Assembly (NCBI GenBank): GCA_951406725.2
Contig: OX597832.1
Span: forward strand, 48,174,001 to 48,238,000
DNA from: Octopus vulgaris
Taxonomy: Eukaryota
DNA length: 64,000 nt
Direction of reading: 5' to 3'
In this document: piece after piece, positions 1 through 40,393 of the stretch
How the letters are laid out: each line of letters opens with the position of its first letter
Numbering within the stretch: the first letter of the stretch is position 1
Notes under the pieces: generated by a model
What the model was told of the DNA's origin: nothing
The model's database searches: none
Seen by the model: only the letters and a program-made list of their open reading frames with translations
Translations under genes and position numbers: made by a program

Positions 1-805
1 ACGGCAGATGAAATACCTATTTCTTTACAACCCACAAGGGGCTAAACACAGAAGGGACAAACAAGGACAGAGAAAGGGATTAAGTCGATTACATCGTCCC
101 CAGTGCGAAACTGGTACTTTATTTAATCGACCCCGAAAGAATGAAAGGCAAAGTCGACCTCGGCGGAATTTGAACTCAGAACTTAATGGTAGACGAAATA
201 CCTATTTCTTTACTACCCACAAGGGGCTAAACATAGAGGGGACAAACAAGGACAGACATAGGTATTAAGTCGATTACATCGACCCCAGTGCGTAACTGGT
301 ACTTAATTTATCGACCCCCGAAAGGATGAAAGGCAAAGTCGACCTCGGCGGAATTTGAACTCAGAACGTAACGGCAGACGAAATACCTATTTCTTTACTA
401 CCCACAAGGGGCTAAACACAGAGGGGACAAACAAGGACAGTCACACGGATTAAGTCAATTACATCGACCTCCAGTGCGTAACTGGTACTTTATTTATCGA
501 CCCCGAAAGGATGAAAGGCAAAGTCGACCTCGACGGAATTTGAACTCAGAACGTAACGGCAGACGAAATACCTATTTCTTTACTACGCACAAGGGGCTAA
601 ACACAGAAGGGACAAACAAGGACATACACACGGATTAAGTCGATTATATCGACCCCAGTGCGTAACTGGTACTTAATTTATCGACCCCGAAAGGATGAAA
701 GGCAAAGTCGACCTCGGCGGAATTTGAACTCAGAACGTAAACGGCAGACCAAAATACGGCTGCGCATTTCGCCCGGCGTGCTAACGTTTCTGCCAGCTCG
801 CCGCC
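1..805 (-). mobile_element. SINE family A (tRNA-derived) concatemer: one head plus tandem 185-bp units, runs off window start
   Basis: Unit starts TATTTCTTT at 18, 203, 388, 573 (period 185). Minus strand head GGCGGCGAGCTGGCAGAAACGTTAG (A-box-like), B-box-like GAGTTCAAATTCC, conserved body GCCTTTCATCCTTTCGGGGTCGATAAATTAAGTACCAG. Confidence 0.9.
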
Positions 806-1244
806 TTAGCAAGCAAGCAAACGAACAGCATATTGGTGCAACTACACTCGTAGCGATGCGTGTAATATTTGGCTTGAGGGATATATGCATGGATGCATGG
901 ATGGGAGATGGTACGGATGGTGATATTTATACAGATGGTTTCTGTTTGTTATCCCATATGCTTCTCTGTTTTACTACTTCGCCTTAATGGTTAATACATA
1001 TTAGATATAAACGCAGACACATATCATGTATATAAACTCACACAAACACACACAGAGGCACACAAATATATATATGTACATGCATTCATATGTATGTATC
1101 ATGCTTTCTTACATCTTGTGTCGGTAATAGACTTGGCGCGAGGCAAATTGACGATAAGTGTAGACAAAAGAAATATCGGAGTTAGGATGCTAAAGAAGGT
1201 CAGAGAGTTAAGAAGTGAGACAACGAAACAAATATATACATGTT

Positions 1245-1662
1245 CTACACACACGCACACACACAGACACACACACATAGACACACACACACACACACAC
1301 ACAGACACACACACACACATACACACACACATACACGCAGACATACACACACAGACACACACACAAACACACAGACACACACACAGACACCCACACACAA
1401 ACACACACACACACACACACAAACACACACACACAGACATACACACACAGACACACACACAGACACACACACAAACACAAACACACAGACACACACACAG
1501 ACACACACACAAACACAAACACACAGACACACACACACTGACATACACACACAGACACACACACACACACAGACACACATACACAAACACACAGACACAC
1601 ACACACACACACACACACACACACACACACACACACACACACAAACACACACACACACACAA
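1245..1662. repeat. Compound (CA)n microsatellite
   Basis: Direct reading; source of the His/Thr and Cys/Val ORFs. Confidence 0.97.
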
Positions 1663-2976
1663 ATGAACACCTTCACTCATGAATGTAATATACACAAATA
1701 ATTAAATAAACACACGTACAAGCGTAGTCATACATTCATCCACTCAGTACACACACATAGAGACACACACAGAGACACACACAGACACACACACACACAC
1801 ACGGCTGATGATATGATTTATTCCCATCGCAACAAGAAACTTCGGTGGTGATATTTTATACTTTTATAACGCTCGGCCCCTTGAGTTACTCTGTTGCTTC
1901 TGCTAAATAGTAATACACATGCATACATACATGCACACATACACACACACACACACACACAAATCCCCCAAAACGGAACAAGAACGTAGCAGACGACAAT
2001 AAAAACATACAGACAGATGGACGATACAAAGACGGACAGGAAAACCAGGACGGGACATTTGTGGCTTTTTATTCATCAGTCAAGCTTCCAATCATCACTA
2101 CAGTTTCGGCCTGTTTCACTTGAGACTGTTCAAAATTGGTAGGCCCCAAAACTCTAAGCTAAGGGCATTAAATGTTTGGAAGAAAGCGAACGAATATGTG
2201 CGACAACACGGACCAAAAAAAAACGAGAAAACGGAGAAAATGTTACACGATTGCAAATACTAACAACAAGAATAACAACAGGTGTCTTTCGACTAAAAGG
2301 ATATATACACGTATGTATATATATATGTATACATATATATACACGTATGTATATATATATGTATACATATATGTAAACTATATATTTATTTTAGGAAAGA
2401 TTTTGTCAAAATGAAAATGATTTATAATATAGAAAATTTCCACAGATGAAGACAAGCTTTCTAGAAGGGAGTTTGTCTATTGTGTGGAAGCGCTTTCGCT
2501 CTTTAGATTTTCAAACACACGTGTCGTTATTTAGGGTATTTCCTGTTGGCATTTGGAAGGTAGGGGTTATTAGTCTGGCACATCATAGTGTTGTTTGTAG
2601 AAATCTATTTTGTATATACCCATGTATTAAGATGCGGAAAAAAATTAACTAAAAAATAAAAAAAAAGAATTAGACATACATACATACACACACACACACA
2701 CACACACACACACGCACACACACACACATACACACCTATAGGCAGTGCAATGTTAGTTAACCCGATATATATATCCCTTGTTATCCACTTAAAGTGCATA
2801 ACCACTGTTCTGATTTTATGGAGCTCATATGCACCAAGTAAAGAAAATATGGAATATTTACCTCTCTTTACCCCAAAGGAACCTTTCTGATTAGGTGACT
2901 ATTCACCTCGTCAACCGCTGTTGAACTGAGAACAGTCATTAGCAGCATTTTATAGCAGTATTATATGGAAGTTGAG

Positions 2977-3115
2977 GGCGGTGAGCTGGCAGAATCGTTA
3001 GCACGCCGGGGTCGATTAAATAAGTTCTAGTTACGCATTTAATCGACTTAAACCCTTTGTCTATCTTTGTTTGTCCCTCCCCTATGTTTAGGGGCAATAT
3101 CCCCGAAAGGATCCC
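2977..3115 (+). mobile_element. Deleted SINE A copy
   Basis: GGCGGTGAGCTGGCAGAATCGTTAGCACGCCGG followed by internally deleted body and tail. Confidence 0.7.
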
Positions 3116-38324: not shown

Positions 38325-38623
38325 CCTGTATGGCTCAGTTGCTAGAGCGTCGATCTTTACGATCGTGTGGGTTGTGTAGTTCGATTCCCGGACCGGGCTG
38401 TGTGTTGTGTTCTTGAGCGAGACGCTTTATTTTACGTCGCTCCAGTTCTACTCAGCTGTATCGGCCTTTGCTTTTCCCTTGGATAACATCAATGGTGTGG
38501 AAAGGGGAGGCTGGTATGCATGGGCGACTGCTGGTCTTCCATAAACAACCTTGCTCGGATCTGTGCCTCGGATGGGAACTTTCTAGGTGTAATCCCATGG
38601 GCATTCATGATCGAAGGGGGTCT
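38325..38623 (+). mobile_element. SINE D-like head/core with tail type 3
   Basis: TGGCTCAGTTGCTAGAG...GTTCGATTCCCGGACCGGG; tail is the reverse complement of 17617-17790. Confidence 0.75.
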
Positions 38624-38647
38624 TTATTGTATGTGTGTGTATATATA

Positions 38648-39241
38648 CTCTTTTATTCTTTTACTTGTTTCACTCATTTGACTGCGGCCATATTTGGAGC
38701 ACTGCCTTCATAGTCGAGCAAATCGACCCCAGAGCTAATTCTTTGTAAGCCAAGTACTTATTCTATCGGTCTCTTTTGCCGAACCGCTAAGTTACGGGGA
38801 CGTAAACACACCAGCATCGGTTGTCAAGCGATTTTGGGAGGACAAACACAGACACACAAACATATACACATACATACATACATACATACATACATACATA
38901 CATACATATACATACATATATATACATACATACATATATATATATACACATGCACACACACATATATATATATATACACATACATACATATATATATATA
39001 TATATATATGTAAATATATACATATATATATATATATATATATATATATATATATATATATATATATATATACATATATACAAATATATACGACGGGCTT
39101 CATTCAGTTTCCGTCTACCAAATCCACTCACAAGGCTTTGGTCGGCCCGAGGCTATAGTAGAAGACACTTGCCCAAGGTGCCACGCAGTGGGACTGAACC
39201 CGGCACCAAGTGGTTCGTTAGCAAGCTACTTACCACACAGC
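38648..39241 (-). mobile_element. SINE B with expanded internal microsatellite
   Basis: Family match; about 230 bp of (CATA)/(TA) at the internal site. Confidence 0.85.
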
Positions 39242-39489
39242 TTGGGACTATTTACGCGTTTAAATTGTAGTCTTAAGTACCAACTCTGTTTTTAACGAGT
39301 TCTATGTGAAAAGTGATATGAAAAGCTTCGTAATATTTGCAGTTTTACAAATTGCAGTCACACTTGGTCAGACTTGCATCAAAGGTGTGCTTTTACATTG
39401 TGCACATTGTATGTATGTGCTTAAGTATAAACATAGTCAAATACAATTAAAAAAACCCTCCCACACACGTACGTACGTACATGCGTGCG

Positions 39490-40393
39490 TACCTACCTAC
39501 CTACCTACCAACTTACCTACCTACTTACATAGCTATCTACCTACCTACCTACCTACCTACCTACCTAACCACCTACCTACCCACATACCTATTTCTTTAT
39601 TACCCACAAGGGGCTAAACATAGAGGGGACAAACAAGGACAGACATAGGTATTAAGTCGATTACATCGACCCCAGTGCGTAACTGGTACTTTATTTATCG
39701 ACCCCGAAAGGATGAAAGGCAAAGTCGACATCGGCGGAATTTGAGCTCAGAATATAACGACAGACGAAATACCTAATTCTTTACTACCTACAAGGGGCTA
39801 AACACAGAGGAGACAAACAAGGACAGACAAACGGATTAAATCGATTACATCGACCCCAGTGCGTAATTGGTACTTAATTTATCGACCCCGAAAGGATGAA
39901 AGGCAAAGTCGACCTTGGCGGATTTGAACTCAGAACGTAACGGCAGACGAAATACGGCTACGCATTTCGCCCGGGATGTTAACGGTTCTGCCAGCTTGCC
40001 TACCCACATACCTACCTACCTACCTACCTACCTACCTACCTACCTACCTACCTACCTACCTATACCTACCTACCTACCTATCTACCTACCTACCTACCTA
40101 CCTTCCTACCTACCTACCTTACCTACCTAGCTACCTACCAACCTACCTACCTACCTACTTACCTACCTACCTACCTACCTACCTACCTACCTACCTACCT
40201 ACTTACTTACCTACCCTCCCTACCTACCTACCTACCTACCTACCTACCTACCTACTTACCTACCTACCTACCTACCTACCTACCTACTTACTTACCTACC
40301 CACATACTTACCTACCAACCTACCTACCTACCTACCTACCTACCTACCTACATACCTACATACCTACCTACCTACCCAGATACCTACCTACCT
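39490..40393. repeat. (TACC)n tract containing a SINE A dimer (39590-39999, minus)
   Basis: Direct reading; TACCCACATACCTA on both sides of the SINE. Confidence 0.9.

Follow-up and report, generated by a model that had tools for sequence, protein, structure and literature searches.

The arrays and the element that forms them

How does a short interspersed element (SINE) come to lie in a genome as a chain of units of which only the first carries a head? This question is raised by a 64,000-nucleotide (nt) stretch of repeat-rich animal DNA from Octopus vulgaris (assembly GCA_951406725.2, contig OX597832.1, positions 48,174,001 to 48,238,000; hereafter the window), where an element that we call SINE A occupies 14 loci, six of which are arrays. 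A preliminary description of the window had offered three origins for these arrays: rolling-circle reverse transcription of a SINE RNA opened in a hairpin loop and circularized, repeated template jumping, or transcription from a master tandem array. The explanation that we favor, and that we regard as evenly poised between right and wrong, is that the arrays were reverse-transcribed from linear read-through RNAs and that new chains formed by insertion at position 48 of the heads of existing SINE copies.

SINE A is 231 bp long. The first 47 nt make up a tRNA-like head, and the other 184 bp have the terminus AAAGAAATA (positions are numbered from the first G of the head). The element is short, dispersed and non-coding, and it is flanked by target-site duplications (TSDs) of 13-18 bp at six loci, as expected of a tRNA-derived SINE. 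Motifs seen by eye at about positions 11-25 and 71-83 may correspond to the A and B boxes of RNA polymerase III (Pol III) promoters, and we assume a likeness to octopus repeats, for which the named SINEs OK, OR1 and OR2 or a superfamily with a conserved domain such as Meta would be candidates. ARAGORN predicted no tRNA gene in SINE A and Rfam gave no tRNA match to it. A 27-nt pattern of the SINE A-specific end occurred at no locus in metagenome, viral and prokaryote collections, and a motif search in the accessible part of the MetaSINE supplements returned no SINE A match.

The head of SINE A forms a 15-pair hairpin with a 4-nt loop. In the reference monomer m24 (24351-24581, plus strand; 24334-24597 including a 17-bp TSD that starts with ATAT), the hairpin occupies 24377-24414 and the loop 24394-24397, and the part that corresponds to a headless unit starts at 24398. 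The closing pair between positions 43 and 48 covaries, being G43-C48 in 8 of 14 heads and U43-G48 in 5 of 14. This compensatory pair suggests that the hairpin matters in the RNA.

All six arrays carry a single 47-nt head followed by two to five units that lack positions 1-47. The consensus unit is 184 bp rather than the 185 bp first reported, as periods of 185 stem from different 1-bp insertions. Arrays hold from two to at least five units, which differ by 4-11%. Every complete unit keeps its 3' end, and the inner units terminate at the same AAAGAAATA as the monomers. A1 (1-805, minus strand) runs off the window edge and comprises a head (759-805), four units (573-758, 388-572, 203-387 and 18-202) that represent at least three lineages, and the start of a fifth (1-17). 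A13 (13044-13612, minus strand) has a head, two units (13380-13565 and 13195-13379) and a third that is broken at unit position 197. There it meets, with a short CCT overlap at the join, an old body resembling a further SINE family, SINE B (12970-13043, minus strand; 79% over 47 nt to B); this join possibly reflects a deletion from an A-to-B junction.

A15 (15274-15675, plus strand) has an A-type head and two A units, the first junction of which has A at position 48. Its third "unit" is a headless SINE B body and tail (15676-15845, plus strand; whole locus 15274-15845), attached at position 48 in register with the other junctions. Letters of B type appear from position 59, so that the change to B lies at position 59 or earlier; no B head lies upstream, and microsatellites of (ATT)n type follow. 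A27 (27692-28112, plus strand) was inserted in a third repeat family and has a head and two units of different lineages, flanked by a 7-bp exact duplication, AATAAGT (27681-27687 and 28115-28121). A32 (32483-32897, plus strand; 32464-32913 with TSD) has a head and two units within one 18-bp TSD (32464-32481 and 32896-32913), as first described, the first 7 bases of which match the start of a further unit. Lastly, A39 (39590-40003, minus strand; 39578-40014 with TSD) has a head and two units of different lineages, and its 14-bp TSD starts with TAGGTAT within a (TAGG)n tract. A TSD was sought around A13 and A15 and none was found. That the arrays were retrotransposed is supported by the TSDs around two of the six and by the 7-bp duplication around a third. 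Thus, all six loci named in the preliminary description have a head followed by headless units, with the correction that the third unit is SINE B in A15 and is cut at position 197 against an old B-like body in A13.

A single junction register at the edge of the head hairpin

A search with an 18-nt junction pattern, allowing up to two mismatches, gave 11 matches in the window and none in each of 100 shuffles; one of these 11 matches is a 3' end at 39581 that runs into target DNA and is not internal. The internal junctions, which also number 11, share one register throughout. Seven have exactly AAAGAAATAGGTATTT and four differ by one or two substitutions. The position of the junction had been mapped to the loop side of the hairpin, and in our analysis it coincides with the 3' edge of the 4-nt loop. 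The letter at position 48 is G in 10 of the 11 junctions, A in one and C in none, and C48 is found in 4 of 6 array heads and in 6 of 8 other SINE A copies. In addition, GAAATA at the 3' end of the unit is complementary to TATTTC at positions 50-55, and GAAAT occurs at both 36-40 and 226-230 of SINE A.

The junction is also present outside the window. Of 24 sequencing runs listed, four were compared with the monomer region 24311-24610, namely contigs of X8, X12 and X17, which have different species labels, and the raw run X21 described below; the joint counts that follow are among the joints listed (15 of 389), and the contigs show presence only, their depths not being copy numbers. A joint from position 231 to position 49 or 50 was the most supported, with 41 and 15 contigs in X8 (56), 7 and 2 in X12 (9), and 2 and 1 in X17 (3), and the letters between the two ends are G or A or variants of the same length. 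The junction is therefore family-wide and common to the three species labels. Loose ends after position 231 have a plurality consensus that starts with GGTATTTC (1376 contigs in X8, agreement 0.42; 125 in X12, agreement 0.44). It should be noted that X12 is RNA only by guess, so that expression cannot be read from its 9 junction contigs. The raw whole-genome shotgun run X21 has the species label of the run in which the junction is best represented; 19 of its 12.9 million reads matched and one had the junction, and it was not used.

Two further joints in X8, from 231 to 69 (14 contigs) and from 231 to 75 (11 contigs), have unaligned letters between their ends, and these 25 contigs would fit A-to-B junctions. 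One X8 contig joins position 62, with two additional letters, back to position -1. This corresponds to the joint predicted for a SINE A copy nested in the head of another, and it would imply a TSD of about 15-17 bp, as known for SINE A.

Target sites of A32 and A39 continue into a further unit

To describe the insertion sites, the left TSD copy was taken as the record of the target before insertion. These copies confirm that the targets of A32 and A39 start with TAGGTAT (at 32896 and, one position from the earlier placement, at 39591), which continues the junction for 7 nt against a background of 0.0015 per site in the window. Three arrays have an intact 3' end. The exact 7-nt match is seen in two of them, and the third, A27, has a weaker 7-nt match to the A48 variant with a slipped end. 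The target of the monomer m17 (17287-17518, plus strand; A27/A32 lineage, 13-bp TSD starting with GGT) matches for 3 nt only, for which the background is 0.16. The monomer m11 (11073-11303, minus strand; 15-bp TSD, TA-type end), the dimer d14 (14205-14702, plus strand) and m24 have TA repeats at their ends and lie in targets that start with ATAT or TATA.

The 7-nt match of the A32 and A39 targets to the next unit therefore makes it likely that the template extended beyond the final unit of the insertion, as had been proposed in the preliminary description. Pairing between the 3' end of the RNA and the target at the start of reverse transcription has been published for several clades of long interspersed elements (LINEs) (PMC6007223). 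The 3' ends of SINE A are consistent with an enzyme that begins copying at one set position past AAAGAAA and with a primer that pairs with whatever follows in the RNA. If so, the arrays would have been copied from RNAs longer than the insertion.

Sibling units are of mixed lineages

The units of one array are closer to each other than to units of other arrays (distances of 0.069 within and 0.082 between arrays; permutation p 0.005), and therefore some kinship exists between siblings. A comparison of units had been suggested earlier as a check, in which a rolling circle predicts siblings that are identical at birth; the lineage markers of siblings differ, and there is no likeness specific to a position in the array. 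We made 18 comparisons between siblings and asked whether the alleles specific to one of them match one particular outside unit more often than expected by chance. Three remained significant with Bonferroni correction, namely A1 unit 3 against unit 2 (p 5e-5), A1 unit 3 against unit 4 (p 1.5e-4) and A27 unit 1 against unit 2 (0 of 20000 simulations). Nominal values only were obtained for unit 2 of A13 (0.004), A39 (0.006) and A27 (0.016), and 12 of the 18 comparisons were not significant. The head and unit 1 of A27 are of the A32 lineage and its unit 2 is not. More generally, lineage markers are mosaic across SINE A copies, and units at the same position in different arrays are no more alike than others (mean 0.081, p 0.54), which speaks against the single master array proposed earlier. 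A tree built from 23 units had poor resolution and is given no weight.

A proposed route through read-through RNA and self-insertion

Runs of four T are missing from the consensus unit; TTTT is absent from A32 and A39, and the T runs in the other four arrays are copy-specific. Pol III would therefore be expected to read through a chain. We propose that linear read-through RNAs of chain-bearing source copies would carry an old, inherited junction, and that the reverse transcriptase of a partner LINE would start just after AAAGAAA at any unit end, as the starts of the TSDs suggest. The nicked target would pair with the RNA bases past the unit end, which in a chain RNA would be the start of the next unit. 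Since every SINE A or SINE B head has matching letters from position 48 onward, the best-pairing targets in the genome would be such heads in other copies. Insertion there would produce a host head, a TSD, the new copy and the headless host body. Transcription from the inner head would then drop the host head, and the head, its unit or units and the headless host body would be retrotransposed together in a second round. The predicted outcome is a fixed register, a single head, units of several lineages and A-to-B chimeras, in which the letters of the junction would derive from the RNA template and not arise anew. For the founding junction, the candidates are a nick in the loop, loop cleavage followed by ligation, or a jump, and the 3' end, being complementary to positions 50-55, may leave room for a one-time ligation or jump.

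A broader proposal, which we hold more tentatively and consider possible but short of evenly balanced, is that SINE A is a self-homing element. One ancient junction would have made guides of the chain RNAs, which would prime at position 48 in the head of any related SINE. Chains would then assemble themselves and cross families (A into B), and they would have spread among several related genomes, providing a self-reinforcing path to SINE chimeras and SINE-derived satellites.

Several points weigh against the favored route. None of the 12 heads in the window, examined with 70-nt flanks, has a host head nested with a new head. Among the joints listed (15 of 389), the nested joint is supported by a single X8 contig, and a C48 junction elsewhere in the genome is thus possible. 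A15 and A13 have no TSD, and therefore their B ends could be products of deletion or recombination. The 61-nt A-specific end, compared within the window, matched no LINE-like stretch that could represent the tail of a partner LINE. The target of A39 is itself a (TAGG)n tract. Regarding sibling units, their greater similarity within arrays also counts against the route, 4 of 9 adjacent pairs (A1 units 1 and 2, A13 units 2 and 3, A15 units 1 and 2, and A32) share markers, so that a common birth is not rejected for them, and the sibling simulation assumes even mutation rates and the markers cluster at 171-177. Only A27 (9 against 2 private changes) and A1, in its unit 4 (6 against 0-3), have a 3' unit that looks older; A13, A32 and A39 do not, and there is no consistent age gradient. 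Finally, all steps on RNA, including its transcription, ends, strand and levels, are deduced from DNA sequence.

We also considered a variant of this route that retains the host head through annealing at the 5' junction. An annealing pathway has been published (PMC4245944), but the variant fits A15 and A27 poorly, because their heads go with unit 1.

Other explanations for the arrays

Among the ideas of the preliminary description, template jumping survives our tests, and it does so most strongly in a homologous form. Here, an A or B SINE RNA would be copied as far as the hairpin, and the enzyme would stall or run off at a loop-cut 5' end and move to another A RNA, through homology to an RNA that carries the junction or by an end-to-end jump, until a head is reached, so that all units would form in one event. 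Such template switching would account for the single head, the single TSD, the mixed lineages and the A-A-B chimera, as well as for a junction that coincides with the loop edge, in a hairpin whose 43/48 pair is compensatory, and double template jumps have been published for a fungal LINE (PMC2104539). We nevertheless consider it rather unlikely. A fresh jump at 47/48 should yield C48 junctions from C48 RNAs, and none of the 11 junctions is of this kind; the homologous form should scatter A/B crossovers over about 100 nt, whereas A15 becomes B within 11 nt (one case). Moreover, switching alone leaves the match of targets to the next unit unexplained, and no SINE A copy in the window begins at position 48. 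Alternatively, a few old master multimers could have been retrotransposed, with gene conversion, unequal exchange and deletion later changing the unit number and mixing the lineages. The similarity within arrays (p 0.005), the mosaic markers and the lack of a TSD at A13 and A15 agree with this, and unequal recombination has been suggested for SINE arrays of bivalves (PMC11481361). Yet the absence of position-specific likeness across loci (p 0.54) is not what masters predict, A27 and A32 have the head and unit 1 in common but not unit 2, an A-to-B crossover within the 11 least similar nt would be improbable, and the nested joint of X8 is not predicted; we therefore regard old masters as quite unlikely.

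Rolling-circle reverse transcription would start from a 184-nt circle, cut in the loop and ligated to its own 3' end, and would gain the head by a switch to a full-length RNA. The fixed junction at the loop edge, the complementarity of GAAATA to TATTTC at 50-55, a template that ran past the unit end and the four adjacent pairs compatible with a common birth would all agree with a circle, and ligation by RtcB before retrotransposition has been shown for U6/L1 (PMC6789731). However, a circle lacks the head that is present on all six arrays, and headless arrays were not seen. Siblings are of different lineages and one "unit" is SINE B. A circle cut at 47/48 should carry the letter 48 of the head, which is C in 4 of 6 array heads and in none of the 11 junctions, and the circular unit folds no more stably than shuffles (z +0.5). 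Nor is there a ribozyme: the motif CTGANGA, which we take to be the hammerhead core, is absent from either strand of all six arrays, and Rfam found no ribozyme at E≤5 on 32400-33000 and none at gathering score on the window. We thus consider the circle, the first proposal of the preliminary description, very unlikely. Independent tandem duplication of DNA at each locus, by slippage or unequal crossing over, could use the GAAAT at 36-40 and 226-230 as microhomology, but this repeat would give a period of 190 bp and not 184. One register in 11 junctions at six loci and in contigs of three species labels, together with sibling units that are not copies of each other, largely refutes such duplications, which are the least credible origin of all.

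Other SINE copies and repeats in the window

The remaining SINE A loci include a few unusual copies. In d14, both copies have heads and are separated by a TA-rich linker within one 15-bp TSD; 7 X8 contigs have a 231-to-start joint like that of this full-length head-to-tail dimer. Upstream of m11 (11290-11353, minus strand) and within the TSD, its first 16 bases are repeated perfectly three more times. At 16480-16846 (minus strand), a 5'-truncated A copy passes at its 3' end into a B-like copy, close to head position 15 of the latter, and a 229-to-15 joint is also present in X17; together, they hint at a second junction register. Two further copies are m29 (29363-29590, minus strand) and the 5'-truncated m36 (36081-36297, plus strand), which is inserted in an antisense SINE B. 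At 2977-3091 (plus strand) lies an internally deleted SINE A/B-like derivative, with head position 34 joined to the body near position 115, and at 43619-44200 (plus strand) three older copies resembling SINE B follow one another, two of them with their own heads.

Apart from SINEs, the window has a lone 5S rRNA copy (56108-56225, minus strand; 83.5 bits) followed by a run of five T, which may be a gene or a retrocopy. A broken mariner-type transposase lies at 42498-43217 (plus strand; Pfam Transposase_1, E 2.7e-19 on 42885-43214), and a frame at 23716-24135 resembles a mariner-type transposase and had no Pfam hit. The open frames at 44939-45484 (minus strand) and 58883-59239 (plus strand), which we take to resemble C-terminal pieces of RTE-type LINEs, had no Pfam hit and no tail match to the SINE A end. 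A 420-bp dispersed repeat that was not classified has two near-complete copies (4525-4943 and 10062-10483) and part of a third near 49065.

Comparison with known systems

On present evidence, the arrays are a real feature and a variant of SINE multimers, not a circle-templated element. In the open literature, with subscription papers and repeat libraries outside its scope, we found no account of SINE A arrays or of self-targeting at a head hairpin. The accessible part of an O. vulgaris repeat paper (PMC13282606) does not mention the arrays, and its supplements or repeat library may hold such consensi; they are likewise unmentioned in the accessible parts of PMC4824008, PMC4758252, PMC5804259, PMC9795677 and PMC4245944.

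With thousands of natural replicates, a single fixed junction, lineage markers and TSDs, SINE A makes the question of multimer origin directly testable within one assembly. If self-targeting is true, a non-coding retroelement would gain a site preference from its own read-through RNA, a simple engine for the exchange of modules between SINE families and for SINE-derived satellites. If it fails, the arrays are a well-defined case of SINE multimers, of modest interest. For annotation, chains inflate family counts and confuse the building of consensi.

Chimeras of U6 and L1 reportedly have ligation points that vary along L1, unlike the single junction of SINE A, which appears inherited. They are similar in that a Pol III RNA becomes linked to a second RNA before it is retrotransposed (PMC6789731), and the founding junction may have arisen in this way. 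The known model for circle-templated tandem insertion is the metazoan non-LTR retrozyme, with a type I hammerhead and expressed circles (PMC7229834; bioRxiv 10.64898/2026.07.22.740005). SINE A arrays resemble retrozymes as short tandem copies with TSDs longer than 4 bp (18 bp in A32 and 14 bp in A39), but no hammerhead was found in them and a tRNA-like head is present.

Rodent B2/B1 and Dip elements form head-to-tail multimers of up to eight units, which make up nearly half of Dip, and their authors left undecided whether these arise by insertion into the tail of another copy or from dimeric templates (PMC8466645). The units of rodent multimers are full length (PMC10702118), whereas those of SINE A are headless from one fixed point inside the head hairpin; the only multimer of the rodent type in the window is the dimer at 14205-14702. 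The SINE-derived satellite (sSat) of squamates, like SINE A arrays, has tandem units shorter than the parent SINE, but it is probably subtelomeric and runs to hundreds of units that tend to homogenization (PMC10702118), and the SINE A arrays, as far as the window shows them, are short, dispersed, TSD-flanked and mixed.

The closest likeness is to the blood clam Scapharca broughtonii, in which HCD SINEs form TSD-(SINE)n-TSD arrays that have been ascribed to unequal recombination, an attribution given without a test in the accessible part of that report (PMC11481361). As in the clam, SINE A forms chains of a tRNA-derived type of SINE within one TSD, with a complete head on the first unit only, the same head truncation in later units and another family in some arrays (PMC11481361). 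This layout is seen in SINE A as heads on six of six arrays, 11 of 11 junctions in register and TSDs at two or three of the six. In the clam, however, the tails of the first and inner units are truncated, and arrays account for about 3% of copies (PMC11481361), whereas complete SINE A units keep their 3' end, 6 of 14 loci are arrays, and the target matches point to an RNA template.

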